Of a stretch of 64,000 bases of DNA, positions 29,643 through 53,425 are shown piece by piece. Within the stretch, counting starts at the first letter, position 1. Each line of letters begins with the position of its first letter. The stretch covers positions 4,453-68,452 of the forward strand of contig VXMD01000035.1 of NCBI GenBank assembly GCA_009841255.1, in the 5' to 3' direction. Made by a program: the position numbers and the translations under genes. Below the pieces are notes generated by a model that worked only from the letters and a program-made list of their open reading frames with translations, did no database searches and was not told the DNA's origin. Origin of the DNA: Candidatus Poribacteria bacterium. GTDB taxonomy: Bacteria; Poribacteria; WGA-4E; WGA-3G.

Positions 29643-31052
29643 ATGGCAGAAGCACCATACACCATCTTCGATTCGCGTACCCTTGACGATATCCATCGCG
29701 AAATTCAAGAGGTTTATCTTGAAAATGCTCGACCATGGGTTATCGGATATAGTGGTGGAAAAGATTCAACGACTGCTCTCCAGCTTGTTTGGAGTGCTAT
29801 CGCTGACCTGCCGCCTGAACAACGGAAATACCCAATCTATGTGATTTCGTCCGATACACTAGTTGAGACACCGGTAATCGTTAGCTATATTACTGGCACT
29901 TTAGACCGAATTAAGATGATCGCACGTCAACAGAATATGCCGTTTGAGACCTCACTTGTACACCCAAAAGTTGAGGACACCTTCTGGGCTTGTCTCATAG
30001 GCAAAGGGTACCCGGCACCGTATAGTCGTCTGCGCTGGTGCACGGATAAAATGAAAATTCGACCTGCTAACAGGTTTATCTTAGAAAAAGCTTCCGAATA
30101 TGGGGAGGTTATCCTTGTTCTTGGCGTGCGTAAAGGTGAAAGTGCTACACGTGATCAAGTAATGAACCTACATCAAACTAAAAATTCGTTACTTTTGCGG
30201 CATAGTTCACTTCCTAACGCGTTTGTCTACGCACCAATTGTCAATTTTAGTCTGAATGATGTTTGGATGTATTTATTAAGTAATCCTCCACCATGGGGAG
30301 GAGATCATAGGCAACTTGTTACGCTTTACCGGAACGCAAATGGACAGGGAGAATGCCCTCTTGTTGTCGACGAAACCACGCCATCATGCGGTAATAGTCG
30401 ATTTGGATGCTGGACTTGTACTGTTGTTTCTAAAGGTCACTCGATGGAGGGACTAATTGACAGTGGTCAAGATTGGATGTTACCATTACTTGAGTTTCGA
30501 GAGATTCTCATGGAAACTCAGGTACCTGAAAGGAAAGCGGATGTTCGAGAACATAGGAGGCGTAATGGGAAAGTTACAATAGACAAAAACAATGGAAAAT
30601 TGGTGCGTGGCCCTTATACCCTCGAATTCTGTAAAGAACTTTTAAGAAAACTTCTTGAGACTCAACAAAAGGTCCGTTTGATAGGACCTGATCCGAATAT
30701 CGAACTTATCACACATGCAGAACTTGAAGAAATTCGTAAAATTTGGCGAACTGAACGCCAAGATTGGGAGGATGCTGTTCCGCAGATTTACGCTGACGTT
30801 ATTGGTGAACATGAATGGATAGTTGATGATACGGTGGCCTTTTCGGCATCGGACAAGATGTTACTATCTGCAATTTGCGATGAAAAAAAGATACCTGTCA
30901 CTCTCGTGGCAAAATTGTTGGACACAGAACGGCAAATGGATGGTATGAGTCGGCGCGCGAGAATCCAATCTCAAATTGATGCAGTTTTCAGTGAAGATTG
31001 GGAATCAGAAGAAGAGGTTCTTACTGCCTTAAGTATTAGTAATCAACAATGA
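29643..31052 (+). CDS. dndC: DNA phosphorothioation sulfurtransferase DndC (PAPS-reductase-like PP-loop protein)
   Basis: The PP-loop motif GYSGGKDST and the Cys cluster CGNSRFGCWTC are present. The 469-aa gene is followed by overlapping dndD and dndE. Confidence 0.85.
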   Translation: MAEAPYTIFDSRTLDDIHREIQEVYLENARPWVIGYSGGKDSTTALQLVWSAIADLPPEQRKYPIYVISSDTLVETPVIVSYITGTLDRIKMIARQQNMPFETSLVHPKVEDTFWACLIGKGYPAPYSRLRWCTDKMKIRPANRFILEKASEYGEVILVLGVRKGESATRDQVMNLHQTKNSLLLRHSSLPNAFVYAPIVNFSLNDVWMYLLSNPPPWGGDHRQLVTLYRNANGQGECPLVVDETTPSCGNSRFGCWTCTVVSKGHSMEGLIDSGQDWMLPLLEFREILMETQVPERKADVREHRRRNGKVTIDKNNGKLVRGPYTLEFCKELLRKLLETQQKVRLIGPDPNIELITHAELEEIRKIWRTERQDWEDAVPQIYADVIGEHEWIVDDTVAFSASDKMLLSAICDEKKIPVTLVAKLLDTERQMDGMSRRARIQSQIDAVFSEDWESEEEVLTALSISNQQ

Positions 31053-33073
31053 TCCTTCACAAACTTACTCTCAACAATGTTGGTTTGTTCGGTAAATTAC
31101 AAACTGCTCGCCTTACACCGAAGAATGGCAAGCCTTTAATCCTGATTGGAGGGATGAACGGTACTGGAAAAACAACACTGTTGGAAGCCGTTCGCCTCTG
31201 TCTCTATGGTCGCCGGTCATTGGGATCTCGGGTTAGTCAGAATGAATACAACGAGTTCCTTTCTAAAATGATTCATAGGAGTCCTAATTTAGATCTGTCT
31301 CCAAAACAAGCATCTGTGTCGCTTGACTTTGAATATGCGCGTAGTAATGAAAAAATACTATTTCGTGTTGAGCGATCTTGGCAACGCTACGGCAGCGTCG
31401 GTAACATTAAGGAAAAACTAACAATATACGAAAATGATGAATTAAATACAGAGTTTGATGCGGGGCATTGGCAGGACTATCTTGATGAGCTGATACCAAT
31501 TGGTGTATCTCAATTTTTCTTTTTTGACGGTGAGGATATCCAGAAATTGACAGACGATTCCACTCACGATTTGTCCCTTGCTGAATCGATTAAGGCATTG
31601 CTTGGACTTAACTTAGTGGAGCGGTTGCAATCGGATCTGCATATCTATGCAAATCGTTTGGCAAAGCGCAGAAGTCCGGAACCTCTTCAGAAAGAATTTG
31701 AAACTGTAGAATCAGAAATCGAGACTCTTAGGTTGTCCCTCAAGAATGCAGATGAAACCTTAGAATCTATACAGACTGAAATTGAGAAATTAGAGTTGCA
31801 AATTGCGGAACAAGAATCCAAAATCGCCTCAGAAGGTGGGAATTATGGAAAAAAACGAGAAGGTTTGAAACTTCAACAGAAGCAACTCCATACTGAAACT
31901 GAAGAATTAGAAAATCAGATTCGTGACCTATGTGCGGAGTTGTTCCCGTTTGCGCTTGGCCCCGAACTACTCAAGCAGTTAAGAAAGCGGCTGCTTAGAG
32001 AAATTGAATTAAGCGAATGGGAGGCGCAAAATCGTGCCTTGAAAATTCAAAACATGAAACTCCTTGAAACACTTGATTCTGGAGCGTTTTGGGATGATGA
32101 CCTCTTATCAGAATCACAAATTGAAGTAGTTCGGTCCAAGATTGCCCCCCTTTTAAAGACGCAACTTAAACGTCCGGAAGAATTACAAACGTTCAAGAAA
32201 ATTCGGGACCGTTCTGCCTCAGAATATAACCAGTTATTAAAGTGGATTGATGCTTGTCTTAGTGATGTACCTCAAGAATTTCGGAAATTGAACGAAACTT
32301 TAAGAGAAACACACTTAAAACAGCAAAAAGTACAGCAGGCACTTCAAAGAGCACCAGACGAAGATGTACTAAAACCAATGCTTGAAAATCTATCGTCGTT
32401 AAATCAGATGCTTGGACAAGAATGTAAACAAGAAGAGGATACTAACAGATTGATACGTTCTCTGTCTCATCAGTTAGCAGAATCAGAACGTAAACTGGAA
32501 AAAATGTATAACACTCAGCAGCTAGGAACAGTAAACATCCAACGCCAACAACAAGTAAAGGATGTGCAATCAGTACTTTCTACGTATACAACCAAACTTA
32601 CACAAGCAAAAATTGAAACTCTGGGTAATGCTGTTGTCAAAGGCTTTAACCAACTCTCACACAAACCAGACCGAATTAAGCGAATTGAACTTAACCCACA
32701 GACTTTTGCTGTGACACTCTACGATACCTACAACCAACCTCTCTCAAAGGGAGAATTATCTGCCGGTGAAAAGCAAATATATACAACTGCCCTCTTATGG
32801 GGATTGGCAAAAACCTCTGGGAAGGCACTACCAATGATTCTTGATACTCCACTGGGACGTTTGGACGGTAGCCATCGTCGACTCCTTGCTGAACGTTATT
32901 TTCCGTATGCCAGTCATCAAGTGATTTTATTATCAACTGATACTGAAATTGAAAAATCCTTCTTTTCATTGTTGAAACCACATATTTCACACACACTCCA
33001 TTTAGTGTATCAGCAGTCTGAGGCTCGTACCACTATAGAAGATGGCTACTTTAGAGAATTATTATGCGATTAA
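31049..33073 (+). CDS. dndD: DNA phosphorothioation SMC-like ATPase DndD
   Basis: It has the Walker A motif IGGMNGTGKTTLL, a long coiled-coil middle and a C-terminal ABC signature and D-loop region (LSAGEKQ...MILDTPLGRLD). It is 674 aa and overlaps dndC by 4 nt. Confidence 0.85.
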   Translation: MILHKLTLNNVGLFGKLQTARLTPKNGKPLILIGGMNGTGKTTLLEAVRLCLYGRRSLGSRVSQNEYNEFLSKMIHRSPNLDLSPKQASVSLDFEYARSNEKILFRVERSWQRYGSVGNIKEKLTIYENDELNTEFDAGHWQDYLDELIPIGVSQFFFFDGEDIQKLTDDSTHDLSLAESIKALLGLNLVERLQSDLHIYANRLAKRRSPEPLQKEFETVESEIETLRLSLKNADETLESIQTEIEKLELQIAEQESKIASEGGNYGKKREGLKLQQKQLHTETEELENQIRDLCAELFPFALGPELLKQLRKRLLREIELSEWEAQNRALKIQNMKLLETLDSGAFWDDDLLSESQIEVVRSKIAPLLKTQLKRPEELQTFKKIRDRSASEYNQLLKWIDACLSDVPQEFRKLNETLRETHLKQQKVQQALQRAPDEDVLKPMLENLSSLNQMLGQECKQEEDTNRLIRSLSHQLAESERKLEKMYNTQQLGTVNIQRQQQVKDVQSVLSTYTTKLTQAKIETLGNAVVKGFNQLSHKPDRIKRIELNPQTFAVTLYDTYNQPLSKGELSAGEKQIYTTALLWGLAKTSGKALPMILDTPLGRLDGSHRRLLAERYFPYASHQVILLSTDTEIEKSFFSLLKPHISHTLHLVYQQSEARTTIEDGYFRELLCD

Positions 33074-33426
33074 ATCGAATTCAGATATCTGAGGATTCCC
33101 GCAATAAATTGAGCATTCTGAAAGGCCGGACAGGATTGCTACCAAATGTTCTTAGCAGAATCGGGCTGATGCTTTCTCTAACCGAAGCAAATGAACCAGT
33201 CCTTGATGTAGATACTACGGATGGATCTGAATTTAACCGTTTCACACTGATGGGGGAGTGGGACTCGCTGATTATAGCACTGTTGGAGGAAAGAGGTAGT
33301 GTTAATGGTATGATCAAAGATAACGATACTCTGGTCAAATACTTTCGGGCACATCTAAATCGCGGTGTTCTACTGTTGTACAGTCGAGTGAAAGGGATTG
33401 AGGATTTAGTGAATCTTTTGCCTTGA
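33064..33426 (+). CDS. dndE: DNA phosphorothioation protein DndE
   Basis: The 120-aa ORF overlaps the dndD stop. The size and position are canonical for dndE. Confidence 0.65.
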   Translation: MRLNRIQISEDSRNKLSILKGRTGLLPNVLSRIGLMLSLTEANEPVLDVDTTDGSEFNRFTLMGEWDSLIIALLEERGSVNGMIKDNDTLVKYFRAHLNRGVLLLYSRVKGIEDLVNLLP

Positions 33427-33438
33427 CATTCTATTCAA

Positions 33439-33909
33439 CTAAGATATTAAATCTTTGTATGGTTCCCAGTTTAACAATAGATCAACTAAATTTTCAACTC
33501 TATTACCAGGGGCCTCTTCAACCTGTTCTTTAATCACAATAATTCCGCTATTAGCATATCCTTCTGCAATTCTTTGTATTTCTTTTTCATTTGTTAATAC
33601 TTCTGGATTTCCTGTTTTAGCCAGTGCCAAAGCGCGGAGAAGGGCTAAATCGTCCTCTTTAAATACAGTTCTCGCGAAAATATTCCGACGGTTTGTCCCC
33701 AGAGGAACCCATTTTTCCTGAAGGAATCCAATAAACGCGGCCAACATAAATAGGTTTTTCATTCCCTTAAAAGGCGGGTACTTCTCTCCTTCTCGGGATT
33801 CTTTTAGGGTTACATAGAGTGGATGATAGGACTCATCAATATAGACATAGTCTAGGGCTTGTACTTGTTCTGTTGTATTTGTTTCAATGCTTTCAGCAGT
33901 CATTATCAA
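33439..33909 (-). CDS. Hypothetical 156-aa protein, the last gene of the nuclease-helicase/ATPase operon. It has weak DndE-like similarity.
   Basis: An ATGA overlap links it to the upstream ATPase gene. Short local resemblances to DndE in this window: EDDLALLRALALAKTG against EWDSLIIALLEERG, and NRVENLVDLLLN against GIEDLVNLL. Confidence 0.45.
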   Translation of the reverse strand: MIMTAESIETNTTEQVQALDYVYIDESYHPLYVTLKESREGEKYPPFKGMKNLFMLAAFIGFLQEKWVPLGTNRRNIFARTVFKEDDLALLRALALAKTGNPEVLTNEKEIQRIAEGYANSGIIVIKEQVEEAPGNRVENLVDLLLNWEPYKDLIS

Positions 33910-35849
33910 TTTCCATTCTTATGCAATTCGTTGATCGTGGTTATGCTTATCTCATCGTCGAAATGCAATTCGTATTCCGCGCCGATCCGTGGTTCAAGAT
34001 TCCTCCATGCTCGCTCATCAGGTCGTAGTTCCTGGTCTGTAACAAATAAAATCAATTGGCTAGCGATAGAAGGAATGGTTTCGGTAATGTTTTCTTTTGG
34101 TTTATCGGAGAGTTTCGTAAAAGGAGCATCCATTACAATAGGAAAACGCTCTGTCGGCATATTAGACAACTTTTCCTTAACTGCTACTTTTGCTAGAGCA
34201 GCAATGAAAGCAAGGCTCAAAACCTCACGTTCTCCAGCAGATATCTCTGGACTTACCTGTCCATCATAGCGATCAATTACCTGAAGTTCGTAATTTGAAC
34301 TAAGACGTACCTCACGAAATGTATTTTCCTTCCATATCAATTTCTTGAAAATATCGCTGACCTCAATTTCAAGGTCTTTTCGCATATCCTCTTCAAGCGG
34401 GGCATATAATTCTTCCATTGCTGCTGCTGATTCCATAGCAAGCCGTCGACAACACTTCAGACGTTCTGCTTGAACTTCTAAAGATTTTGCCCTATCAATT
34501 TTCTGATCTAATGATTCTATTTCTACTTTGATTTCTTTAAGTCTACCTTTGTCTTGGTTAATCTTCGCTTCTAAATCTCTGATGTCCCGTTCGTATTCTT
34601 CCTGAGTTTTTTTATGTCTCTGGAAGTCATCGTCATCGAAATTTTCAAGAATCTTCTTAATTTCGTCTAAACGTGCTTCATTTGCCTCAATGTCCTTCTC
34701 TAGGCGTTGTTCGTCACTTAGTGTGGATTTAACATCAACAGGGATATTTTCAACCTTAGCCTCCAACAAGCGATTCAAACTGTTTTCTGTTTCTCTTACA
34801 GTAATACCAAACTCGGGAGAAACATTTTGAGAAATCAAATTTTGAATATGTTCATATTCCGGGCTCTCAGGATGAATAGATCTTCCACAAAGACAACGCA
34901 TATGTTCAAGTAAATCGTTCAGAATTGCATCAGGAATTCCGATCGGGGCTTTATTGCTACGGAGAATTGCTAATGCTTTTTCTATAGCAGATTGTGCTAA
35001 AGGGATAAAACCGTCATTAGCGAGTTGCAGAATCTTTTCCTGATACTTATCTTTTTCATCACCAAGCCTTTTCAGATTTGCTTTGATCGCTTTTTGTTCT
35101 TCAAAAAGCCGGCGAGTTTCCGAAAATTGTACAAGCACCTTCTCTAGGTCTTGTTTATGCTTCTGTGCGATTTTAACCTTTTTTACTTTATCTTTGATTT
35201 CCTCTGAAATTTTGACCCAAAGTGCTTCCTTTTCCTCTTTTTCACTAATTAATGCCTTTAATTCGTCCGGCACGTATTTCTTAAATTCACGCTGATAATC
35301 TCGAGTTACCTTTTCTAAATGTGTTATACCACGTTCAAACAACTCTATCCTCAGCACATTATGCACAGCACTTTTGATTTCATCTTCATTTCCTGGTTTG
35401 GCAAAATTATCTATCTTTTCGCCATCAAAAAAGAAGTGAGCACTTACATCTTCAGGAATAATAGACTGGATTTTGTCTGATGCACCAGCATCTAAATCTG
35501 CGGGTTCATTCTCTTTTTCCAGCAAAAAAGTTGGTTTATTATTGCGAAGCCATTGGCATTTCCGTTCTACTCGGTATCTAACATCCTGATCAATAAAACC
35601 TATTTCTACTGAAGTATCAACATTTTTTGCTTGCGCCACAACACGTCTATTCACGAATTCGCGGGTGTTTCCTTTAAAAAATGAATCTCCATACAAACAC
35701 CAGTTAAGAGCAGTAAGCAAAGAAGTTTTTCCTGTGCCATTAACTCCTCTGATGACTGTCACATTGCGATATTTATCAGTAGCAAAATGAATAGTTTGCT
35801 CACCATAATATGGACAGAAATTTTTTAACTTAATATAGTTAAGTATCAT
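33906..35849 (-). CDS. DndD-like SMC/ABC-type ATPase (second paralog)
   Basis: It has the Walker A motif VIRGVNGTGKTSLL, a long coiled coil, and a C-terminal signature and D-loop region (ISAGEREVL...IVMDAPFTKLSD). The N-terminus MILNYIKLKNF parallels the DndD N-terminus MILHKLTLNNV. Confidence 0.75.
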   Translation of the reverse strand: MILNYIKLKNFCPYYGEQTIHFATDKYRNVTVIRGVNGTGKTSLLTALNWCLYGDSFFKGNTREFVNRRVVAQAKNVDTSVEIGFIDQDVRYRVERKCQWLRNNKPTFLLEKENEPADLDAGASDKIQSIIPEDVSAHFFFDGEKIDNFAKPGNEDEIKSAVHNVLRIELFERGITHLEKVTRDYQREFKKYVPDELKALISEKEEKEALWVKISEEIKDKVKKVKIAQKHKQDLEKVLVQFSETRRLFEEQKAIKANLKRLGDEKDKYQEKILQLANDGFIPLAQSAIEKALAILRSNKAPIGIPDAILNDLLEHMRCLCGRSIHPESPEYEHIQNLISQNVSPEFGITVRETENSLNRLLEAKVENIPVDVKSTLSDEQRLEKDIEANEARLDEIKKILENFDDDDFQRHKKTQEEYERDIRDLEAKINQDKGRLKEIKVEIESLDQKIDRAKSLEVQAERLKCCRRLAMESAAAMEELYAPLEEDMRKDLEIEVSDIFKKLIWKENTFREVRLSSNYELQVIDRYDGQVSPEISAGEREVLSLAFIAALAKVAVKEKLSNMPTERFPIVMDAPFTKLSDKPKENITETIPSIASQLILFVTDQELRPDERAWRNLEPRIGAEYELHFDDEISITTINELHKNGN

Positions 35850-36016
35850 TGGGAGTCAACTTCCTTTTCAATGATTTTCTGAATATCTTCAATAATACCG
35901 CGAGGATTTCGCATATGCAGTTTTTGACGTTCAGCTGTAAGGACTTTACGAATCACGTTTTCTATCTGATGAGTTAAGTCTGTCTTTGCTTTAGGTAATT
36001 GTTTTTTTTCTTTCAT
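35846..36016 (-). CDS. Small 56-aa protein, absent from the ORF track, translationally coupled on both sides
   Basis: The sequence is MKEKKQLPKAKTDLTHQIENVIRKVLTAERQKLHMRNPRGIIEDIQKIIEKEVDSQ. Its ATG overlaps the upstream TGA (TGATGA) and its TGA overlaps the downstream ATG (ATGA). Confidence 0.4.
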   Translation of the reverse strand: MKEKKQLPKAKTDLTHQIENVIRKVLTAERQKLHMRNPRGIIEDIQKIIEKEVDSQ

Positions 36017-38082
36017 CAAGCTTCCCCTAACGCTCCCAAAAGGTTGTAATACTTAGCAAGTTCCCATATTTTATCACGTGCCTCAAATTTATTTAAGGCC
36101 ATTCCAGCAAATTCGCTAAATCTCTTTAGTTCGCGTGCAACGATTTTGCGCTCGGTAGCAAATGTTGCAGTTGGATATTGCTGGTAATCCATAGGTGGTA
36201 CAGCGATTAGGTCATGGATCTCTGCGTGTTCTTTACCAAGAGACTGCCTGAGAATCCGTCCACGCCGCTGAATAAATTCCTTCGGATTACTACTGCTCGC
36301 AAGGATATAAGCGGTTCGAGTGCTTGGCACGTCAACGCCTTCGTCCAGACACCTCATTGCTACAAGAGCTTGAAGATGTCCAGATGCGAACATCTTTAAC
36401 AATTCTTGTCTTTTAGCAGCTGATTCCTCCGCAGTGAATTTCGCAATTCGTAATTTCAAATTGGTTAATAATTCAAGAACTGAATCTACTCGTCCAGGAG
36501 CACAGTAAAATAATGTATGATGGAGTGAATCGGTTTTGTCAAATAATAATTCTGCCAACTTTGCCAACTTGTTTTCTGCTCGGTTAAGCAGTGCCGCTCG
36601 TTTTATCAGCAATCGTTCAAGTGCTTCACTTGTCTCACCAGATTCTACCAGATGATAAAGTTTTGAAATCCTTTCTGTGAGACGTTCATACTCCTCAAAT
36701 TCGCTGTCAGTCAACTCAACGAGATATGGATGATAATAGTAAGAACAGAGATATCCCTGTTTAATTGCTTTGTCGAGAGAAAATTCGTAAATTGTATCTC
36801 CAAAATAACTCCTGAGGGCAGCCGTACCTGGTGTGTCAAACCAGCGGTTAGGTGTTGCTGACAAGCCGAGACGGTAATTAAAAACCTCAGTTAATCTCTT
36901 GCCGCTTTGTTCTGCTCCAAGGTGGTGGACTTCATCCGCTACTAAAATAGCATCGCGTTTCAATTTGGAAAGTAATTTCTGCATGGTGTCATTTATAAAA
37001 GTGGTCTGTGTCGTAATAGTACAGACAACATCGCGAACACCATAATTATATCGCACTAAGGCAGTATTAAGCCGATTCACCCAAGTGGCAGAGCTTTTGT
37101 ATGCCAGGATTGGTTCAAATCCAAACCTGACTGCCTCCTCGTACCACTGATCAACGAGGTGCTGATATGGACACGCGATAACTACAAATAAATTTCCTTT
37201 TTCCCCTTTTAGTTTGGAAAGGGCAGAAAGAGCCGTGATCGTTTTACCAGTACCCGTCGCCATTTCCCATAAACCACGACATCTGTTCTTAAACCAAGCA
37301 TCAATCGCTTCAGACTGATACCCTCTTAATACTATGTCTTTTGGTAAATAAGGGGCGGTTTTTTCAATTATTTCTGGTTCATCTGTTGTCTCTGCTTGTT
37401 CTGTTTCATAGACCGTCTGATGGATTAAAAGTTCTTCCGTAACAGCACTTAGGAAATTTACAACATCCAACTTATCCGTGTTATTATCCCACAATTTCTT
37501 AAAATTATCTACTTTTTGTTGGACGCGTTCTTGAGTGTCATCCCATGACCAATGAACATCAATGGATTCAAAATTGTTTAGCAAACCGCCGACAGTTTCA
37601 TTTGATGAACCTGAAAATGCTACGGCGTTGTTATCATCATCTAAAAAGACTCCTATCTTTTCGTGATAGACTGCATGCTGATAATTTGTGTTTGAATCAG
37701 AGGGGAATGCGATTTTAATCTCTAAATGACCATGGGCAATTAACCAAGTGAGTAGCATTAATCTATCATGGGAAACTTGCAGAAAATCGCAGTCAAGGGA
37801 GGAATCTAAATTTTGTTTTCTTGCTTTGTAGCCGTATTGAATCGCCTCAATGTCATCTGACATCAATTTAGGTCCAGTTACCAAACTCATTTGCCCACCA
37901 TGCCGAATAAAAGTGGACAATCCTTTCACGTTCAAAGCAAGACCATTGCTAGTGAAATAGGCAACTGCACGATAATACCGTATGGCGTTTCTCAGACATG
38001 GTGTATAAAAGTCTGTAACAAGATTGGATCCGTCGGAACGATATTCAGATTGTAGCGATAGTTCTCTGAGTGACATAGGCAA
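36016..38082 (-). CDS. PLD-family (HKD) nuclease domain fused to an SF2 DEAD/DEAH-type helicase
   Basis: The single HKD motif is YHEKIGVFLDDDNNAVAFSGSSNET (HxK...D...GSxN). The helicase motifs are I (ATGTGKT), II (DEVHH) and VI (QRRGRILR). The protein is 688 aa. Confidence 0.8.
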   Translation of the reverse strand: MPMSLRELSLQSEYRSDGSNLVTDFYTPCLRNAIRYYRAVAYFTSNGLALNVKGLSTFIRHGGQMSLVTGPKLMSDDIEAIQYGYKARKQNLDSSLDCDFLQVSHDRLMLLTWLIAHGHLEIKIAFPSDSNTNYQHAVYHEKIGVFLDDDNNAVAFSGSSNETVGGLLNNFESIDVHWSWDDTQERVQQKVDNFKKLWDNNTDKLDVVNFLSAVTEELLIHQTVYETEQAETTDEPEIIEKTAPYLPKDIVLRGYQSEAIDAWFKNRCRGLWEMATGTGKTITALSALSKLKGEKGNLFVVIACPYQHLVDQWYEEAVRFGFEPILAYKSSATWVNRLNTALVRYNYGVRDVVCTITTQTTFINDTMQKLLSKLKRDAILVADEVHHLGAEQSGKRLTEVFNYRLGLSATPNRWFDTPGTAALRSYFGDTIYEFSLDKAIKQGYLCSYYYHPYLVELTDSEFEEYERLTERISKLYHLVESGETSEALERLLIKRAALLNRAENKLAKLAELLFDKTDSLHHTLFYCAPGRVDSVLELLTNLKLRIAKFTAEESAAKRQELLKMFASGHLQALVAMRCLDEGVDVPSTRTAYILASSSNPKEFIQRRGRILRQSLGKEHAEIHDLIAVPPMDYQQYPTATFATERKIVARELKRFSEFAGMALNKFEARDKIWELAKYYNLLGALGEA

Positions 38083-40538: not shown

Positions 40539-40620
40539 TTTAAAAGAAAAGACGGGAGGATGGAAGCAGAGCCGTAGGGTTCAATCTTCCAACCTTCCAG
40601 TCTTTCAATTTTTGTTAGAG

Positions 40621-41520
40621 ATGAGATTTAACGAAGTCACAATTCCCCGCTGGCGCGGTTTCCTAACCTCGCCTCTTGTTCTCTTGATCCTCATGTTTTT
40701 AGCGTTCGCCTGTCGCGAGAGAGCAGATTCCCCCCTCGTTGGTACCCTTCCGATTCAAACAATCACAACCCCCAAAGATGAAGCCGTCATGGTCTATGTC
40801 CCCGCTGGCGAGTTCCTCATGGGAACCAGCGACGCCGACATTGAACGTTTCAAGGAAATTTTTCCGCTCCGCGATATTGCTCGATTCGACAATGAACGTC
40901 CCCAACGTACCGTTTTCGTCGATGCCTTCTACATTGACAAGTATGAAGTAACAAACAAACAATACAAACGATTTCTCGCCGAAACCGGTTATGTTCCCAA
41001 ACACTATCTGGATTATCCGCCGCATAATACACCTGACTTCCCAGCGGCTGTCTTGGAATGGGAAGATGCAGTTGCCTACGTTAATTGGGCAGGTAAAAGG
41101 TTGCCGACAGAGGCTGAGTGGGAGAAAGCGGCTCGCGGGACAGATGGTCGCTTTTGGCCCTGGGGGAATGAATGGGATGGCACAAAGCTCAGCGGAAATG
41201 ATGGCACAGGACTCAAAGATGGATATAAAGAGACTGCACCTATTGGACAGTTTCCGCAAGGCGCGAGTCCTTACGGGGCACATGATATGGCGGGCAACCT
41301 CTGGGAATGGGTGTCGGACTGGTATGATCCGAACTATTACCGGACTTCACCTCCCAATATGAATCCGAAGGGACCCGACACAGGCGATGGACATGTTCTA
41401 AAAGGCGGCGGTTGGGCAGAAAATTTGGATTTTACGCGATGTGCCAGCCGTCAGGGCGGAAACCCCGGATCTCTCATACGAGGGTTTCGATGCGTGATAG
41501 ACGCGCCACCTGGAGAGTAG
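40621..41520 (+). CDS. Formylglycine-generating-enzyme (FGE/SUMF1, DUF323) family protein, membrane-anchored or secreted
   Basis: An N-terminal transmembrane or signal segment is followed by an FGE-sulfatase-domain pattern: RVLKGGGW-like (HVLKGGGWAE), AHDMAGNLWEWV and the C-terminal RGFRCV. Confidence 0.75.
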   Translation: MRFNEVTIPRWRGFLTSPLVLLILMFLAFACRERADSPLVGTLPIQTITTPKDEAVMVYVPAGEFLMGTSDADIERFKEIFPLRDIARFDNERPQRTVFVDAFYIDKYEVTNKQYKRFLAETGYVPKHYLDYPPHNTPDFPAAVLEWEDAVAYVNWAGKRLPTEAEWEKAARGTDGRFWPWGNEWDGTKLSGNDGTGLKDGYKETAPIGQFPQGASPYGAHDMAGNLWEWVSDWYDPNYYRTSPPNMNPKGPDTGDGHVLKGGGWAENLDFTRCASRQGGNPGSLIRGFRCVIDAPPGE

Positions 41521-41822: not shown

Positions 41823-42338
41823 GTGAAAGTTTCAACCACCGTTACTTATCCGCCAGGAATCATTAAAAAACAGATTATCACGCATGCAGACCCAGATCTT
41901 GATGCGATTGTTAGCGCATGGATCGCCCAAGATTTTCTCTTCAAGGGGCACGCGTCAGAGGTCCTATTTGTGAGCCGAAAAGTGCCCGAGAAACGCATGC
42001 AGCATGCCGATTGTGTGGTGGATGTCGGGAACACATACATCCCTGAAAACTACCGCTTCGATCACAAGCCTCCCGCGTTTCAGAATAGAAATAGCACCTG
42101 TGCGACCCGACTCATTTGGGAATATTTACGCGACACTGGTGCCGATGTCGCACACCTTGAACCTTTGGTGCAGATTACATATCAAGGCGATACACACCGA
42201 AATTCAGATGCGCTCAAACAGAGTCGAATCGACGGTCCACATGCGGAATTAAAGAAACTAAAATCAGGACATACAGAAACAACAGAGGTCTATCGACAGA
42301 TGGTTCTCTATCTGAGGAGTTATACAAAAAACCTATGA
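41823..42338 (+). CDS. Hypothetical protein with a DHH-family-like N-terminal motif
   Basis: ITHADPDLDAIVSA resembles DHH phosphoesterase motif I-II, but the protein is short (171 aa). Confidence 0.35.
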   Translation: MKVSTTVTYPPGIIKKQIITHADPDLDAIVSAWIAQDFLFKGHASEVLFVSRKVPEKRMQHADCVVDVGNTYIPENYRFDHKPPAFQNRNSTCATRLIWEYLRDTGADVAHLEPLVQITYQGDTHRNSDALKQSRIDGPHAELKKLKSGHTETTEVYRQMVLYLRSYTKNL

Positions 42339-43645
42339 AGCAGTTTACATGTTTACTCATTGCCCTATTTGTTCTGGCAGTCGTGCCAGCCAAATACGCA
42401 AGTGCCGATGAATGGCACCAGTGGCGTGGTGAAGACCGAGAAGGCGTTTGGAATGAAACCGGCATCATCGAAAAATTTGAAGAAACAGAAGTCCCGATCC
42501 GTTGGCGTGTGCCTATCGGCAGTGGCTATAGCGGACCGAGCGTCGCGAATGGACGTGTATACGTTACAGACAGGCTCACAAAGCCGAAACAGGTTGAACG
42601 CGTTCACTGTTTCGATTGGGAGACGGGTGAATCCATCTGGTCCTACACCTACGATTGCGTATACAAGATTGACTATACAGCGGGACCCCGTGCGACTGTG
42701 ACTGTGCATGATGGACTCGCTTATGCATTGGGCGCGATGGGACATCTGCACTGTTTCGATGCTGCCACGGGTGAGGTCGTATGGAAAAGAGATCTCAATA
42801 CCGAATATGACATCAATATGCCTATCTGGGGCATTGCATGTGCACCTATTGTCGAGGCGGAAAACGTCATCGTCCAAATTGGCGGCAAGCCGAACGCGTG
42901 TATCGTCGCATTTAACCGAAAAACTGGCGAAGAGGTGTGGAAAGCACTTGACGATAACGCCTCTTATTCCGCACCGATTGTTATTACGCAAGCAGGTAAA
43001 CGTGTCCTCATCTGCTGGACAGGTGCCAATATCGCAGCACTTGATCCGCAGACCGGGGCAGTGCACTGGCTCTATCCGTTTCCACCGGAGAGTTTCGAGA
43101 TCGCGATTGCTACGCCTATTTTCGATCAGAATGAATTGTTCGTTACCGAGTTCCGTCAAGGTTCTCTTCTTCTGAAGTTACCACAAGATCAATTGACGGT
43201 AGAACTCGGCTGGCACCGTAAGGGCAAAAATGAACAGAATACCGACGCCCTTCAGACGACAATGGCGACTCCCGTGCGTTTTGGGGATTACATCTACGGT
43301 GTGGATAGTTACGGGGAACTCCGCTGTCTGGATGCCCGGAATGGGGATCGGGTTTGGGAAGACCTCTCCGCCGTGCGGAAAGCGCGCTGGAGCAATATCC
43401 ATCTCGTCAAGCATCCCGCTTCATCGGATAACAAAGTCTGGATGTTCAATGAACACGGCGAACTCCTCATTACAGAACTCTCCCCTGAAGGACTGAATAT
43501 TATCAGCCGAGCCAAATTGATCGAACCGACACGCGACCAACTCAACCGAAGAGGCGGTGTTACATGGGCACACCCTGCGTTTGCCTATAAACACGTCTTC
43601 GCTCGGAACGATAACGAACTCGTTTGCGCCGATTTAGAAAAGTAA
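42335..43645 (+). CDS. PQQ-like beta-propeller repeat protein (BamB-like), secreted
   Basis: There is a signal peptide, a WRGEDREGVW pattern and repeated GxxVyV/A...G.L.a.Da.tG propeller blades. Confidence 0.75.
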   Translation: MKQFTCLLIALFVLAVVPAKYASADEWHQWRGEDREGVWNETGIIEKFEETEVPIRWRVPIGSGYSGPSVANGRVYVTDRLTKPKQVERVHCFDWETGESIWSYTYDCVYKIDYTAGPRATVTVHDGLAYALGAMGHLHCFDAATGEVVWKRDLNTEYDINMPIWGIACAPIVEAENVIVQIGGKPNACIVAFNRKTGEEVWKALDDNASYSAPIVITQAGKRVLICWTGANIAALDPQTGAVHWLYPFPPESFEIAIATPIFDQNELFVTEFRQGSLLLKLPQDQLTVELGWHRKGKNEQNTDALQTTMATPVRFGDYIYGVDSYGELRCLDARNGDRVWEDLSAVRKARWSNIHLVKHPASSDNKVWMFNEHGELLITELSPEGLNIISRAKLIEPTRDQLNRRGGVTWAHPAFAYKHVFARNDNELVCADLEK

Positions 43646-46689: not shown

Positions 46690-46761
46690 TCGGTAGGTGC
46701 GGTTTCTAACCGCTTTACGTATGCATATCTTTCCTCGGTAGGTGCGGTTTCTAACCGCACC
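46690..46761. repeat. Two direct copies of the 24-bp hairpin repeat TCGGTAGGTGCGGTTTCTAACCGC
   Basis: The copies lie at 46690-46713 and 46735-46758, each a GGTGCGGTT/AACCGCACC stem. The same family occurs at 57614-57639, 17512-17545 (degenerate) and 53441-53464 (variant). Confidence 0.6.
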
Positions 46762-46792
46762 GCTCTTAGGAGAAAAAAGAAAGGAATTAGAA

Positions 46793-48112
46793 ATGAAGAG
46801 AATCGCAATTTTGACCTTGTGTATCTTTGCTTTGGCAGTGATTGCGGCAAGCGCATCGCAGCCTGTAGGTTTCGAGAAGAACTGGCACCATTGGCGAGGA
46901 CCGCACGCGACGGGTGTCGCGATTGATGCGAATCCGCCCACGATGTGGAGTGAAACTGAAAACATCCGTTGGAAAATCGCTATTCCCGGGACCGGACATG
47001 CCGCGCCAATTATTTGGGAAGACAAAATTTTCATCCAAACCGCTATTGAGGGTAAGGAAGAGAAGTCTGCGGATGACAATCCATTCGGAGGCTTCTTTCA
47101 AAGAGATAGCGGTCCCAAGTATAAATTTGATCTCCTTGCCATCAATCGAAGCGACGGGAGTATTTTGTGGCAGAAAACGCTGCGAGAGATAAATCCGCAC
47201 GAGGGGACACACCGAGATGCCACTTTCGCTTCAAACTCGCCGGTTACCGACGGTGAGCATATCTACGCGTATTTCGGTTCGCGCGGACTCTACTGTGTTG
47301 ATATGATGGGCAATGTGAAGTGGGAAAAAGAGGTCGGCACCATGTATAAACGTAACACCTTCGGTGAAGGAAGTTCACCCGTTCTCCACGGCAACACGCT
47401 CGTCATCGTTCAGGACCATGAAGGGAATTCCTTTATCACCGCACTCGACAAGCGGACGGGTGATGTCCTGTGGAAGACTGACCGTAATGAAAGAACGACT
47501 TGGTTTTCACCGATTGTCGTTGAACAGGATGGGAAACCTCAGGTGGTTACGACAGGCACAAATCGTGTCCGTAGCTACGATTTGGAAACCGGTGAACTTT
47601 TATGGGAAGGCGATGGTTTAACTGCCAATGCTATCCCGTCACCTGTCGCTGCCGATGGGTTCGCTTATGTGATGAGCGGCTTCCGAGGCAGTGAATTGCG
47701 GGCAGTTCACCTTGCAAAGGCGATGGGGGATATCAGCGGTTCAGAGGCAGTCGTCTGGGAACACGGTCGGGATACACCTTATGTGCCATCACCGCTCCTT
47801 TATGGGGATATACTCTATTTCTTGAAAAGCAACGACGGTATCCTCTCTGCTTTCGATACCAAGACGGGAAAGGCGCACTACGGTCCGAAACGGTTACAGG
47901 GTGTTTCGGGCGTCTACGCTTCGATCGTTGGCGCAGCGGATCGCGTCTATATCGCCGGCCGGAACGGAACCGTGAACGTTGTCCAACACGGTCCCGAATT
48001 CACAATCATAGCGGAAAATACGTTAGACGATAGTTTCAACGCATCGCCTGCGCTTGTGGGTTCGGAGTTATACCTCCGTGGCGGCCAGTATCTCTACTGC
48101 ATCGCGGAATAA
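46793..48112 (+). CDS. PQQ-like beta-propeller repeat protein, secreted
   Basis: It has the signal peptide MKRIAILTLCIFALAVIAASAS and is homologous to 42335-43645. The 46742 start in the track would overlap the hairpin repeat, so the ATG at 46793 is preferred. Confidence 0.75.
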   Translation: MKRIAILTLCIFALAVIAASASQPVGFEKNWHHWRGPHATGVAIDANPPTMWSETENIRWKIAIPGTGHAAPIIWEDKIFIQTAIEGKEEKSADDNPFGGFFQRDSGPKYKFDLLAINRSDGSILWQKTLREINPHEGTHRDATFASNSPVTDGEHIYAYFGSRGLYCVDMMGNVKWEKEVGTMYKRNTFGEGSSPVLHGNTLVIVQDHEGNSFITALDKRTGDVLWKTDRNERTTWFSPIVVEQDGKPQVVTTGTNRVRSYDLETGELLWEGDGLTANAIPSPVAADGFAYVMSGFRGSELRAVHLAKAMGDISGSEAVVWEHGRDTPYVPSPLLYGDILYFLKSNDGILSAFDTKTGKAHYGPKRLQGVSGVYASIVGAADRVYIAGRNGTVNVVQHGPEFTIIAENTLDDSFNASPALVGSELYLRGGQYLYCIAE

Positions 48113-48121
48113 ATAGTTGTC

Positions 48122-48203
48122 GGTTAACAGTTGTTGGTTAACAGTTACAAGAGGGCTTTGTGAAACGGGTGCCTCTTAACTGTTAACTGTTAACTGTTAA
48201 CTG
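48122..48203. repeat. Long palindromic element with GTTAACAGTT and AACTGTTAAC tandem units (family member 3), lying between convergent genes
   Basis: GGTTAACAGTTGTTGGTTAACAGTTACAAGAGGG...CCTCTTAACTGTTAACTGTTAACTGTTAACTG. It is a likely bidirectional terminator or a REP/MITE-like element. Confidence 0.55.
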
Positions 48204-48211
48204 AGTACTCC

Positions 48212-48958
48212 CTAATACGTTGCTCTCCCACCGCTGACATCGTAGCACTGTCCTGTCACGAAACTCGCTTCATCTGATGCCAAGAAATTTACCACAGCCG
48301 CAACCTCCTCCGGTTTCCCGACACGTCCCAATGGAATCTTACTCACCATATAATCGACAGTTGACTGTGCCATACCGTCCAAAATCGGCGTTTGGATCAC
48401 CGCGGGCGATACCGCATTTACACGGATATTATAGTCCGTTACCTCTTTCGCAAGTGCTTTCGTTAGGGTGATGACACCTCCCTTAGACACCGAATAAGGA
48501 ATGAGCGTCGGATTGCCCTCTTTCCCAGCAATGGAGGCGATGTTCACAATCCTGCCGTAGTCCTGCGCAATCATCGGACGGATGACCGCTTTACAACAGA
48601 GGAAAACACCGGTGAGGTTTACGCCGATCACGGCATCCCAATCCGCCTCTTCTAAATCGGTGAGTGGGAGTGTCCGTCCCGCAATACCCGCATTGTTGAC
48701 GAGGATGTCAACACGACCAAAGGTGGATATAACCTTCTCAACAGCGGCATTAACATCATTGGACTGTGTAACATCGGCTTGAACGGGCATTGCACTGCCG
48801 CCAGTCCCTTCAATTTCCCCTGCCACAGATGCTGCCGCATCCATGTTCAAATCCAAGACAGCAACGTTTGCCCCAGCGTTCGCAAGCCTCATAGCGATCG
48901 CTTTGCCGATACCCTGTCCTGCGCCTGTCACAATCGCAATTTTATCCGTTAGATTCAT
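48212..48958 (-). CDS. Short-chain dehydrogenase/reductase (FabG-like)
   Basis: The motifs TGAGQGIGKAIA and NNAG are present, and the length is typical for an SDR. Confidence 0.9.
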   Translation of the reverse strand: MNLTDKIAIVTGAGQGIGKAIAMRLANAGANVAVLDLNMDAAASVAGEIEGTGGSAMPVQADVTQSNDVNAAVEKVISTFGRVDILVNNAGIAGRTLPLTDLEEADWDAVIGVNLTGVFLCCKAVIRPMIAQDYGRIVNIASIAGKEGNPTLIPYSVSKGGVITLTKALAKEVTDYNIRVNAVSPAVIQTPILDGMAQSTVDYMVSKIPLGRVGKPEEVAAVVNFLASDEASFVTGQCYDVSGGRATY

Positions 48959-49511
48959 TAAAATCCCTCCCTTTCAGAAAATCGTCTAATTCTATTCCAA
49001 AAGCATCCGCTATCCGGTTGACGTAACAGAAAAAGCCAACGACCTCCACAATAGCGAAGAGTGCTTCGTCAGTGAGTCCGTAACCGCGGAGGTGTTCCAA
49101 GTCCGCCTGTGTCACGGTAGATGCTTCCTTTGTCACTTTGACTGCAAATTCGAGAATCGCCTTTGTCGTTTCGTCAACATCAGCCCTCTGAAAATCCGTC
49201 ACAATCTGTGAAATCTGATCGTCTGTGAATTGATCCCGCAACTCATCGGCGTGCGCTATTATTCAGTAGTGACATTCGTTCACTTTTGATACAACGGTAG
49301 CGATCATTTCCCGTTGCATCCGACTCAGTGGGCAGTCCGGGTCGTGCATCACGATTTTGTAGAGTTCAACGAAGGCGCGCATGCTTTTCGGACGCACACT
49401 GAAAAGTTTGACGATATTGTAAAGCTGCCCCGCCCGTGCAATTGCCGCCTCATATTCTTCTTTCACGATGCCGGTAGCATCTGCCGCATCTACGGTTTGG
49501 ATCCATGCCAT
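48942..49511 (-). CDS. AhpD-like / carboxymuconolactone-decarboxylase-family peroxidase-related protein with an in-frame TGA (candidate selenocysteine) at 49263-49265
   Basis: The 82-aa and 99-aa ORFs in the track are in the same frame, separated only by one TGA. Translating through the TGA gives ...E(x11)C-H-Y-U-I-I-A-H..., which exactly matches the AhpD catalytic motif E(x)11CxxC(x)3H with Sec in place of the second Cys. The C-terminal half (TKAILEFAVKVT...LRGYGLTDEALFAIVEVVGFFCYVNRIADAFG) is the conserved CMD-domain tail. Confidence 0.55.
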
Positions 49512-49514
49512 ATT

Positions 49515-50744
49515 CTATTCTCCAATCACAACGCCGTATTCACCAACAACGGCGCCTTTGTGTCCGGTTTGGTAGTGTAGATGTCTTTCGCCAACAATCG
49601 GTTGTGTGCTTTGCACTTCAACCGTGCCACGCACTTTCCCCATTGCGCCTTCATCCATATCTACACAGCAGAGCGGTTTAATCTGGCGATGCACTTGCCG
49701 CTGGATATGTCCTTGTCGGTTTCGGACGATGACATTGACAAAGGCGTCTGCTTCCCCGACGTTAAGGAATCGGAACCAGTCCCAGGCACCCCCCGCAATT
49801 TCAGGGAAAAAGAGTCGGATGCCAATCTGTCCGCCCTCCACCGATGCACCGGGTAGATCGATAATGGCTGTCCCACTTTGCATGTGTCGTTCCGCGACAA
49901 CCGGTTGATTGCTCCGCACTTCTACGGAGGATTTCACTTTAATGTCATCCATAGGGGGTGTCCAACACTCAAAAGGCCTGAGTCGATCCCGTTTTTTTGT
50001 CCATGTCGATTCTGCGTTGTCATCTTTCCGTGCGATCATTGTTACTTCTGCATCTTCTCTTCCGACGTTAACAATCACAACCCAATCTTCCCATGCAGGA
50101 CCGACCTCCGGGAAAAAGAGCGTCCGGGGCGCATCCGCAATTACCTGTCCAAATTGCCCGACAGATGTCTTGCCGCCTTGATAGTGGAGATGGCGTTCCC
50201 CAACAATCGGTTGTGAACTTTGCATCTCAACTGTGCCTGTGACGTTACCCATAACCCTTTCATTGAGATCCCAACAACAGAGAGGTTCGATGACATGGTG
50301 TCGTTGCCTGAGCACATCGCCGTTCCTATTTCGGACGGTGATATTGACGTGTGCCTCCGCCTCACCGACATTTAGCACTCGAAACCAGTCGTGGGCACCA
50401 GAGACCAACTCCGGAAAGAAGAGTCTCTGTCCGACGGTTCCGTATTCTGGTGCCGCGCCAACAAAATCGAGCACATTCGTGTCCTTATGCATGTGCCGTT
50501 CTGCCACAATCGGTTGGTCCGCAGTGAACTGCATTGAGGAGTTCGTTTTAATTTCCTCAACGTCCGGTATCCAGGACTCAAAGGAACTTATTGTTTTCTC
50601 CGCAGACCAAGTAGGGTGCCCGTTGTCGGCATGCCTCGCGATTGCAGTCACACGGGTATCTTCAGTTCCTACGTTCGTGACTTGGACCCAGTCTTGCCAT
50701 TCGGGTCCCACCTCTGGGAAATAAAGGGTCGTTGCACCTGCCAT
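49515..50744 (-). CDS. Protein of four ~100-aa tandem repeats with conserved QPIV(G/A)ERH(L/M)H and PLCC(W/V)D motifs. The family is unknown.
   Basis: The internal repeats run LFFPE(L/V)..W.DWF..LNVGEA.A.VN..VRNR.G...RQ.H..I.PLCC.D......G.V.GTVE.QS.QPIVGERHLHYQ. There is no signal peptide. It is the first gene of an operon with the AhpD-like and SDR genes. Confidence 0.55.
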   Translation of the reverse strand: MAGATTLYFPEVGPEWQDWVQVTNVGTEDTRVTAIARHADNGHPTWSAEKTISSFESWIPDVEEIKTNSSMQFTADQPIVAERHMHKDTNVLDFVGAAPEYGTVGQRLFFPELVSGAHDWFRVLNVGEAEAHVNITVRNRNGDVLRQRHHVIEPLCCWDLNERVMGNVTGTVEMQSSQPIVGERHLHYQGGKTSVGQFGQVIADAPRTLFFPEVGPAWEDWVVIVNVGREDAEVTMIARKDDNAESTWTKKRDRLRPFECWTPPMDDIKVKSSVEVRSNQPVVAERHMQSGTAIIDLPGASVEGGQIGIRLFFPEIAGGAWDWFRFLNVGEADAFVNVIVRNRQGHIQRQVHRQIKPLCCVDMDEGAMGKVRGTVEVQSTQPIVGERHLHYQTGHKGAVVGEYGVVIGE

Positions 50745-50945
50745 TGCTGCCTCCTCTTTAAAGTCTTTTCTGTTACGATACGCACTCGCAAAGTGTAATT
50801 TAAGAATCTCGTATTGGAGATGACTGTTACTATTTTAACTTGCATATATTTATCTTTTCCACTACAATTTTGGTTCAATGCCATTTAGTCCACATCTATT
50901 AAATGGCGCTCGCAATTCTACTACACATCTTGAGGAGAATATTCT

Positions 50946-51233
50946 ATGGCAGCGAAGAAACTCTCAGACGCTGAAATTCAGGAAAACTTGGGACAGCTCA
51001 ACGGCTGGACTGTGGAAGACGGTAAGTTACACAAAGAATTCCAGTTTGATACCTTTGTTACGGCGTTCGGTTTTATGGCACAACTCGCCTTAATTGCTGA
51101 ATCGATGAACCACCATCCGGAATGGTTTAACGTCTATAACCGCGTGACGATTGACCTGATGACCCACGATGCGGGCGGCATCAGCGAGCTTGATTTCCAG
51201 TGGGCAAAGCACGCAGATGCGATAAGTGGTTAA
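50946..51233 (+). CDS. phhB: Pterin-4a-carbinolamine dehydratase
   Basis: The NHHPEW motif is present, and the length (95 aa) and overall pattern are typical. Confidence 0.8.
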
Positions 51234-52351: not shown

Positions 52352-53425
52352 ATGAGCCAGAAAACGTATCGTGCCGCAGCAATCGGGCATACAGGTGCCG
52401 GCAACTTTGGGCATGGACTCCACACCCCATATAAAAATATAGAGAACGTTGAATTTATCGCTGTTTCGGATCCGAACGAAGAGGGTCGGGAAAAGGCAGC
52501 CGCGGAGGCAGGTGCCTTGCGAAGTTACGCCGATTATCGGGATATGCTTGAGAAAGAGGATCTTGATATTGTGAGCGTCTGTCCCCGTTGGACCTCAGAT
52601 CACGTTGCTATGATAACTGCGTGTCTTGAAGCAGGCTGCAGCGTCTACAGTGAGAAGCCGATGACGAGTACACTCGCCGATGGTGATATAATCGTTGAAA
52701 CAGCAAAAGCACACGGATTAAAGGTTGCTGTGGCGCACCAAGCGGTCTATCTACCGGCAACACATGCGATTAAAAAGATGCTCGACGACGGGAAAATCGG
52801 CACAATCCAAGCCATCCACGCTAGCGGTAAACAGGATCATCGCGGGGGTGGTGAGGATATGATTGTTCTCGGCACCCACACGTTTAATATGATGCGTTTC
52901 TTCGTCGGTGATGTCGCGTGGATGCAGTCCCACGTTACCACAAACGGAAAAGAAGTGGCGTCTGGTGGCGACCACGAACCGACGGAACCTGTTGGACCCG
53001 TCGCGGGTGATTGCATCAACAGTTACTTCGCTTTCAAAAGCGGTGTCTCTGGCTTTTTTGAATCCCGGAGAGATCAGGCTGGCTCCGGCAGATACGGCAT
53101 GGAGATTGTCGGTAGCGAAGGCATTTTCTCGCTCCGTGGTGATGTTGCAAACCGACTCATGGTCTATCCATATCCGGTACTGCTCCCTTCAAATCCGGGT
53201 CAGGAGTGGGAGGCAATCGACTTGGACCAGACACCTTTCTCCAGTGGAAATGAACTCGCCATTCGTGATCTGATTGATGCGATTGAGAACGACCGGAAAC
53301 CGATATCTGCAGCCGAAGACGCCGTCGCCGCCTTGGAAATGATCCTCGGTGCCTACGAATCTCAACTGTCAGGACAGCGGGTCTCCTTCCCAGTCGCAAA
53401 CCGTGAGCATCCTTTGAGCAGATAA
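52352..53425 (+). CDS. Gfo/Idh/MocA-family oxidoreductase
   Basis: The N-terminus AAIGHTGAGNFGHG is a Rossmann fold, and the EKP motif is present. Confidence 0.85.
   Translation: MSQKTYRAAAIGHTGAGNFGHGLHTPYKNIENVEFIAVSDPNEEGREKAAAEAGALRSYADYRDMLEKEDLDIVSVCPRWTSDHVAMITACLEAGCSVYSEKPMTSTLADGDIIVETAKAHGLKVAVAHQAVYLPATHAIKKMLDDGKIGTIQAIHASGKQDHRGGGEDMIVLGTHTFNMMRFFVGDVAWMQSHVTTNGKEVASGGDHEPTEPVGPVAGDCINSYFAFKSGVSGFFESRRDQAGSGRYGMEIVGSEGIFSLRGDVANRLMVYPYPVLLPSNPGQEWEAIDLDQTPFSSGNELAIRDLIDAIENDRKPISAAEDAVAALEMILGAYESQLSGQRVSFPVANREHPLSR

Follow-up and report, generated by a model that had tools for sequence, protein, structure and literature searches.

The question raised by this locus is whether the single TGA that interrupts an AhpD-like gene of Candidatus Poribacteria is a stop codon or a codon for selenocysteine (Sec). 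In the window, by which we mean the whole 64-kb stretch of DNA that was analysed, the ORF list gives two same-frame pieces, one of 82 aa (49263..49511) and one of 99 aa that begins with TTG (48942..49241). Translation confirmed that the TGA between them is the sole internal stop in a frame of 189 codons, as the first-pass annotation had described for this ORF pair while omitting its minus-strand orientation. Around the stop, the translation reads REMIATVVSKVNECHY*IIAH, in which E68 is followed after eleven residues by C80-H-Y-[TGA]-I-I-A-H87, and the read-through motif E-x11-C-H-Y-U-I-I-A-H holds exactly as it had been written. The signature columns E68, C80, Y82, U83 and H87 are invariant in the family alignment, and the match to the motif is far beyond chance. 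A scan of the window for further ORF pairs that share a frame and are linked by a TGA returned 76 mechanical candidates, among which none besides the AhpD-like locus lies in a real gene or carries a redox motif. The features discussed below are collected in Table 1.

Table 1. Positions of the predicted selenoprotein gene, its candidate recoding signal and its neighbours in the window
Feature	Position	Strand	Remarks
Predicted AhpD-like selenoprotein gene	48942..49511	minus	189 codons; ATG 49511..49509, stop TAA 48944..48942
In-frame UGA, codon 83, predicted Sec	49263..49265	minus	Second Cys position of the motif C80-H-Y-U83
Catalytic signature E68-x11-C80-x-Y82-U83-x3-H87	49251..49310	minus	Translation and alignment columns
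Predicted bacterial SECIS hairpin	49226..49245	minus	Folding, covariation and RNAalifold
Hairpin 5' arm, UGAGUUG	49239..49245	minus	nt 21-27, counting U of UGA as 1
Hairpin apical loop, CGGGAU	49233..49238	minus	nt 28-33
Hairpin 3' arm, CAAUUCA	49226..49232	minus	nt 34-40
Gene for 409-aa protein, upstream	49515..50744	minus	Ends 3 nt before the selenoprotein ATG; conserved partner in the main clade of Poribacteria
Short-chain dehydrogenase/reductase (SDR, FabG-like), downstream	48212..48958	minus	17-nt overlap between its start and the 3' end of the selenoprotein gene; conserved partner

To place the read-through protein in a family, profile searches were run with Cys substituted at stop codon 83. 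The protein matched TIGR01926 (NCBIfam, peroxidase-related enzyme) with 146.6 bits against a cut-off of 81.8, and the alignment runs from end to end, with residues 2-174 on profile positions 1-174 of 178. This score above the curated cut-off bears out the AhpD-like, peroxidase-related identity proposed at first sight, and the AhpD core domain TIGR00778 and Pfam CMD were matched as well. The true AhpD model TIGR00777 remained below its cut-off (18.1 bits vs 191.95), and so did the model NF041238 AhpD_rel_CFYUT (seleno)protein (78.1 bits vs 175), whose match is limited to the C-terminal half of a 357-position profile. When the family profile was compared with the PDB, the closest solved structures were 2pfx, 3c1l (Mlr4105), 2oyo, 2prr and the AhpD structure 6k40, with E values of 1e-36 to 1e-42 over about 160 residues. 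Their alignments cross the UGA position, where the solved proteins have C-x-Y-C. A CMD-fold protein named 'Debrominase Bmp8' appeared as a distant PDB relative (E 1e-6).

We then compared the UGA column among related loci. TGA is present in 79 of 91 loci and TGC or TGT, both Cys codons, in the other 12, a ratio that reflects search patterns favouring the AhpD-like CxxU subfamily and does not estimate a population frequency. The ten distinct metagenome orthologues carry TGA at the same codon without exception. The genome scan, with one genome per species, returned 80 loci, and TGA is found in all 35 best-scoring ones (L014-L048), of which 34 are titled Poribacteria and one (L029) 'uncultured bacterium'; the best genome orthologue, with 92% identity, lies on the Candidatus Poribacteria chromosome OZ244804.1. 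Hosts of the TGA form include Poribacteria, Planctomycetota, Acidobacteriota, Chloroflexota, Neomarinimicrobiota, Halanaerobium saccharolyticum, Cloacimonadota, Binatia and others. The comparison with orthologues that the first-pass annotation had proposed also revealed Cys at this position, not only in the 12 TGC/TGT loci but as CxYC in two further homologues (P0008 and P0009) and in 2pfx and 3c1l.

The coding sequence on either side of the UGA was compared in the same way. Relative to the window, the median pN/pS was 0.15 for the part before the UGA and 0.26 for the part after it, and among the closest relatives it was 0.05 upstream and 0.13-0.22 downstream. These ratios indicate that purifying selection acts on both halves of the gene. 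The residues directly after the UGA, including the motif residue His87, are conserved. The first start-like codon after the UGA occurs anywhere from codon +1 to codon +50 across the orthologues, with no conserved restart codon among them, and the one in the window, a TTG at +8, lies past the conserved His and inside the stem of the hairpin described below. Independent starts, which a two-gene arrangement in the orthologues would have displayed, were therefore not seen.

Downstream of the UGA, the window contains a small hairpin whose third stem pair is a G-U wobble. Among the closest Poribacteria, this third pair forms a series of G-C (GAG/CTC), G-U (GAG/TTC, the window) and A-U (GAA/TTC). To evaluate the covariation, we used an ungapped set of 57 sequences that combined the window with its metagenome orthologues and the genome loci of highest rank, without selection for structure. 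In the hairpin register, 93.7% of the cells are paired, compared with 28-42% in registers slid by 1-3 nt; over all covariation runs, no slid register exceeded 44%. Compensatory changes on both sides occur in six of the seven pairs, for example GAGUUG/CAACUC, GGAUCUC/GAGGUCC, GACUUC/GAAGUC and AGCCUC/GAGGCU, and neither the observed pairing nor the covariation score was reached by any of 500 shuffles. RNAalifold, run independently, predicts the same six-pair helix. Full 6/6 pairing in this register is found in 54 of 75 distinct Sec-type sequences and in none of the 13 Cys-type sequences (Fisher p = 8e-7), in which pairing never exceeds 4/6. Every one of the 54 fully pairing Sec-type sequences has the loop CG[G/U]GNN; loop position 2 is G in 57/57 sequences, and the next base is G or U in the 54 fully paired ones. 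Sixteen of the remaining Sec-type sequences have an alternative hairpin, with a stem of nt 16-20/24-28 and a loop G[G/U][C/U] at nt 21-23.

The published model of the bacterial SECIS element describes a loop of 3-9 nt, an upper stem of 4-16 bp, a UGA-to-loop distance of 16-37 nt, a G within the first two loop positions that is usually followed by G or U, and a folding energy of -7.5 kcal/mol or lower (PMC13188914). The geometry of the window hairpin fits this model, with a 6-nt loop, a stem of 6-7 bp, G at loop position 2 and a spacing of 24 nt. Its best fold (nt 4-55) has -6.8 kcal/mol against the limit of -7.5, and its 6-bp core, at -4.0 kcal/mol, is the weakest of the 54 (median -6.5, best -9.5) because the third pair is a wobble. 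Among eight orthologue folds of 48 nt, one (L007) has -6.9 kcal/mol and the seven others -8.0 to -13.3; two orthologues (L010 and L013) fold into a different hairpin, and single-sequence folding recovers the hairpin in most orthologues. For the window segments of 48 and 71 nt that follow the UGA, the folding energy is no better than that of shuffles (z +0.45 and +0.97), so folding by itself is uninformative and the case for a SECIS element rests on the covariation. Searches of Rfam at gathering and permissive thresholds gave no SECIS or other family match; the sole match was a chance CRISPR-repeat (E 3.9). The search for a bSECIS hairpin downstream of the UGA, which had been suggested as a check, thus ended with a SECIS-like hairpin that is backed by covariation and not by folding alone.

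The machinery for Sec insertion was also sought. tRNA scans detected no tRNAs at all in the window or in 31 Poribacteria loci, tblastn with E. coli queries gave no match to SelA, SelB or SelD at E <=1e-3 in the window or in 93 loci, and family scans found none of the three among the other ORFs of the window. For the phylum, COG1921 (SelA), COG3276 (SelB) and COG0709 (SelD) are recorded for the Poribacteria bins bin44 and bin70, and also for the single-cell genome Poribacteria WGA-3G, in a published table (Slaby et al. 2017, Table S4; PMC5649159). A Sec-type Group 4 hydrogenase has been reported from Poribacteria in a 2026 survey (PMC13582414). It would be hard to explain otherwise than by such machinery why the UGA is kept in all 35 top loci, with no Cys form among them.

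According to the above-described analysis, the single frame, the family match, the conserved UGA, the Cys homologues, the purifying selection and the covarying hairpin all lead to the selenoprotein reading, and the probable selenoprotein of the first-pass annotation is supported, with all completed checks from its list pointing the same way. We estimate with about 90% probability that the locus is one gene for a 189-residue AhpD-like (TIGR01926, COG2128, CMD-fold) redox protein with selenocysteine as residue 83; as judged from sequence, the in-frame UGA very probably encodes this residue.

Other readings of the same UGA have to be weighed against this one. If the codon were delivered as Cys by a SelC*-type tRNA (tRNA-ReC) together with SelB, the product would be an ordinary CxxC protein, and the conserved UGA, the SECIS hairpin and the Cys homologues would be equally compatible with such recoding; tRNAs that decode a SECIS-associated UGA as Cys are indeed described, in literature cited in PMC13582414. 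However, the mechanism is rare, no tRNA-ReC was seen in the window or the scanned loci, and the AhpD-like family is catalogued as a selenoprotein family (PMC13188914). Moreover, to keep a UGA and a SECIS at 79 loci from many phyla just to insert Cys would bring no evident gain over the TGC used by 12 homologues, and we regard Cys recoding as highly unlikely. Reading the UGA as a sense codon for Trp or Gly in the genetic code of the organism has in its favour that the deposited JGI gene calls of two distant homologues (P0011 and P0012) show W here. But homologues carry Cys in that column, not Trp or Gly, and TGA serves as an ordinary stop elsewhere in the window: DndC (29643-31052) ends in TGA and forms an ATGA junction with DndD (31049-), and TGA likewise closes a DndD-like gene (33906-35849) and a dnd restriction gene (36016-38082), in each case exactly where the family profile ends. 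The ORFs of the window are long and unbroken under table 11. The ordinary use of TGA, including the ATGA junction, had been pointed out from the start; these genuine stops exclude a recoded genetic code, and the probability left to a sense-codon UGA is practically nil.

The remaining reading takes the UGA at face value, as the end of an 82-aa N-terminal fragment followed by a C-terminal fragment of 99-106 aa with its own start, either as two separate genes or as one gene that a nonsense mutation has disrupted. The locus looks like this in every public gene call examined, all of which split it into two ORFs; GenBank names both of them 'peroxidase [Candidatus Poribacteria bacterium]', with the accessions MYC76392.1 for the 82-aa piece and MYC76391.1 for the 99-aa piece. 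Against it, 79 loci belonging to many phyla have a stop at this codon and it is TGA every time, and the CMD/TIGR01926 domain runs across it, as does the catalytic motif. Purifying selection has conserved the stretch that separates the UGA from the first possible start, His87 included, the first start-like codon shifts from ortholog to ortholog between +1 and +50, and that of the window falls within the hairpin stem. A pseudogene would not give a downstream pN/pS of 0.13-0.26. The downstream purifying selection and the varying start codons strongly disfavour both a pseudogene and a two-gene arrangement, and we give a divided gene only a very slim chance, smaller than that of Cys recoding.

Under the selenoprotein reading, the likely roles of the redox residues can be approached through AhpD of M. 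tuberculosis. Its proton relay consists of Glu118, Cys130, His132, Cys133 and His137, and PA0269 has Tyr in place of His132 (PMC3141380). The residues E68, C80, Y82, U83 and H87 of the window protein correspond to these five positions, with Tyr replacing His132 as in PA0269. In M. tuberculosis AhpD, Cys133, the second Cys of the CxxC motif, is exposed at the base of a cleft and cross-links to Cys61 of AhpC, and Cys130 is partly buried; for Burkholderia AhpD, the opposite weighting of the two Cys has been noted (PMC6626918). Because Cys133 is the exposed, AhpC-linking Cys, Sec83 would by analogy stand in the attacking position, and most likely it attacks and Cys80 resolves. This assignment fits the general rule that Sec takes the place of the catalytic Cys. 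The first-pass annotation had called the replaced residue the resolving Cys, a label that is probably wrong given that Cys133 of M. tuberculosis AhpD is the exposed attacker (PMC6626918).

In the mechanism that we infer, which comprises Sec insertion and its dependence on SelB, the roles of the redox residues, the physiological substrate and co-transcription with the neighbours, the UGA at codon 83 would be read by SelB bound to Sec-tRNA(Sec). SelB would be recruited by the small hairpin that lies 18 nt downstream of the UGA and exposes the apical loop CGGGAU. In the protein, C80-x-x-U83 may form a selenenylsulfide/selenol-thiol redox centre that is served by a proton relay of Glu68, Tyr82 and His87. 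Sec83 would attack an oxidised partner, which could be a peroxiredoxin-type disulfide or sulfenate or a small oxidised substrate, and Cys80 would then resolve the adduct between Sec83 and this partner.

The selenoprotein gene is probably co-transcribed with the upstream gene for the 409-aa repeat protein and the downstream SDR gene. A promoter and terminator scan of positions 48000-51100 gave counts equal to the shuffle expectation. In the main Poribacteria clade, the trio is conserved along with a divergent gene for pterin-4a-carbinolamine dehydratase; among the fetched loci, neither a second Poribacteria clade nor other phyla share the arrangement. The family scan gave no match for the 409-aa protein, and its named homologues are hypothetical proteins of Poribacteria. 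Its confident AlphaFold model (pLDDT 93.3, pTM 0.91) consists of four tandem beta-sandwich repeats, which singly match TM1070 (1nc7) and the Anabaena sensory rhodopsin transducer (2ii9). Family scans found no gene for AhpC or another peroxiredoxin beside the selenoprotein gene or elsewhere in the window. It is possible, though we think it improbable, that the protein is not an AhpC-recycling AhpD but a selenol/thiol reductase of a Poribacteria-specific module composed of the protein with four TM1070/ASRT-like repeats, the Sec-containing AhpD-like protein and the SDR. One conceivable job of such a module, suggested by the parallel with the CMD-fold 'Debrominase Bmp8', would be the reductive dehalogenation of brominated metabolites of the sponge host. 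Sec-dependent deiodinases offer another parallel to this idea, as a lead only.

The type of selenoprotein itself has been known since 2005. An 'AhpD-like protein, COG2128, CxxU' was presented as a new selenoprotein family, with 27 sequences, in the Sargasso Sea study (PMC1088965), the AhpD-like family was the fourth most abundant selenoprotein family in the GOS data, with 299 sequences (PMC2398784), and a 2026 review has the entry 'AhpD-like protein, TIGR01926, CxxU' (PMC13188914). The statement that a CxxU AhpD-like protein is a recognised bacterial selenoprotein type is thus well documented in these catalogues. Our literature search found no published mention of an AhpD-like selenoprotein in Poribacteria, and what is new here is the sponge-associated Poribacteria host and the split of the gene in GenBank into two 'peroxidase' ORFs. 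General knowledge of selenoproteins is unchanged by this locus, and its main value lies in annotation. Gene calls of GenBank, ENA, JGI and Logan split the gene or render the UGA as Trp, and this misannotation extends to at least 35 genomes, almost all of Poribacteria, as well as to many other phyla. Through such fragmented gene calls, the active-site residue and half of the domain are lost from downstream analyses. It seems that Sec decoding is fixed across the sampled sponge-associated Poribacteria, in line with reports that sponge symbionts are enriched in SelA and SelB. In addition, the locus provides a SECIS supported by covariation, with a series of G-C, G-U and A-U pairs within one clade and two placements within one protein family, and both the series and the alternative placements could be used for training SECIS predictors.

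Compared with known systems, the window gene is closest to the AhpD-like CxxU family, named 'AhpD-like 1' in ocean metagenome surveys, with which it shares the TIGR01926 match, the Sec at the second motif position, the existence of Cys-containing homologues and a SECIS-type hairpin in the coding region just after the UGA. It differs from the catalogued family in its host, a member of the candidate phylum Poribacteria, and in its clade-specific three-gene arrangement. The solved peroxidase-related proteins, whose function is uncharacterised according to their depositors, share with it the sequence REMIA-VVS-xN-C-xYC-xxAH column for column; they have Cys throughout, whereas Sec is predicted in the window protein. 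M. tuberculosis AhpD has the same E-x11-C-x2-C-x3-H signature and belongs to the same all-helical CMD fold family. However, the motif of the window protein lies in the N-terminal half, as it does in PA0269 and the TIGR01926 proteins, and the gene has no adjacent ahpC, whereas M. tuberculosis AhpD has AhpC as its partner. As for the recoding signal, no bulged U was identified in the window hairpin in the comparison with the SECIS of the E. coli fdhF type, and the hairpin is short (6-7 bp) and without sequence similarity to that element. What it has in common with the fdhF-type SECIS and the bSECISearch consensus is a stem-loop that follows the UGA directly, within the ORF, and whose small apical loop carries G and then G/U near its 5' side.

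Among the more distant Sec-type loci of the AhpD-like family, that is, those with TGA at the predicted selenocysteine codon (L013, L065, L066, L070, L073, L076, L078, L081, L083-L087 and L092), the predicted SECIS hairpin at nt 21-40, counted from the U of the UGA, is absent, whereas an alternative 5-bp hairpin, whose 3-nt loop reads GGC, GUU or GUC, occupies nt 16-28. The hosts include Halanaerobiales, Cloacimonadota, Binatia and Syntrophobacteraceae, among others. Two different SECIS placements therefore occur within one protein family.

Two Sec-type paralogues occur a few kilobases apart in three of these loci, which belong to Binatia, a deltaproteobacterial MAG and Syntrophobacteraceae, and the paired motifs are CSY-U-MTAH and CRF-U-TVAH. 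In the JGI gene calls P0011 and P0012 (L013, 325-777), the in-frame TGA is rendered as Trp (CSYWMTAH). Translation of this region under table 11 does not yield the deposited protein; therefore, the Trp results from misannotation of a selenoprotein gene. Additionally, a 90%-identity cluster (representative P0133) groups the 82-aa N-terminal fragment, GenBank's split-off first half of the selenoprotein, with the unrelated 409-aa upstream protein, and this grouping may stem from some fused gene call in the collection.

Elsewhere in the window, positions 29643-38082 hold a DNA phosphorothioation (dnd) cluster, in which the restriction enzyme gene scored 561 bits against TIGR04095, slightly below the cut-off of 600. 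The FGE-sulfatase and PQQ/BamB-like genes near the selenoprotein are typical of reported Poribacteria gene content.

Features of the window and paralogue pairs of three loci
Feature	Position	Strand	Remark
GFO/IDH/MocA-type oxidoreductases	19585-20670; 20693-21778	-	tandem paralogous pair, 361 aa each
DndC	29643-31052	+	
DndD	31049-33073	+	
DndE	33064-33426	+	
DndD-like SMC ATPase	33906-35849	-	faces DndC/DndD/DndE
DNA phosphorothioation system restriction enzyme	36016-38082	-	TIGR04095; faces DndC/DndD/DndE
Protein with an FGE-sulfatase (formylglycine-generating-enzyme) domain; two PQQ/BamB-like beta-propeller proteins	40612-41520; 42335-43645; 46742-48112	+	near selenoprotein locus
409-aa protein	49515-50744	-	no Pfam or NCBIfam match
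Third GFO/IDH/MocA-type member	52352-53425		
Paralogues, L073	7301; 10252		
Paralogues, L081	4904; 10252		
Paralogues, L086	4223; 6089		

The named homologues of the 409-aa protein are only "hypothetical protein" entries from Poribacteria. In its AlphaFold model (pLDDT 93.3), four beta-sandwich repeats follow one another in tandem, an ERH(M/L)H motif occurs in every repeat, and single modeled repeats are similar to TM1070 (1nc7; TM 0.70) and to the Anabaena sensory rhodopsin transducer (2ii9). The three GFO/IDH/MocA-type genes agree with the COG0673 dehydrogenase expansion in Poribacteria listed by Slaby et al. (Table S4, PMC5649159).
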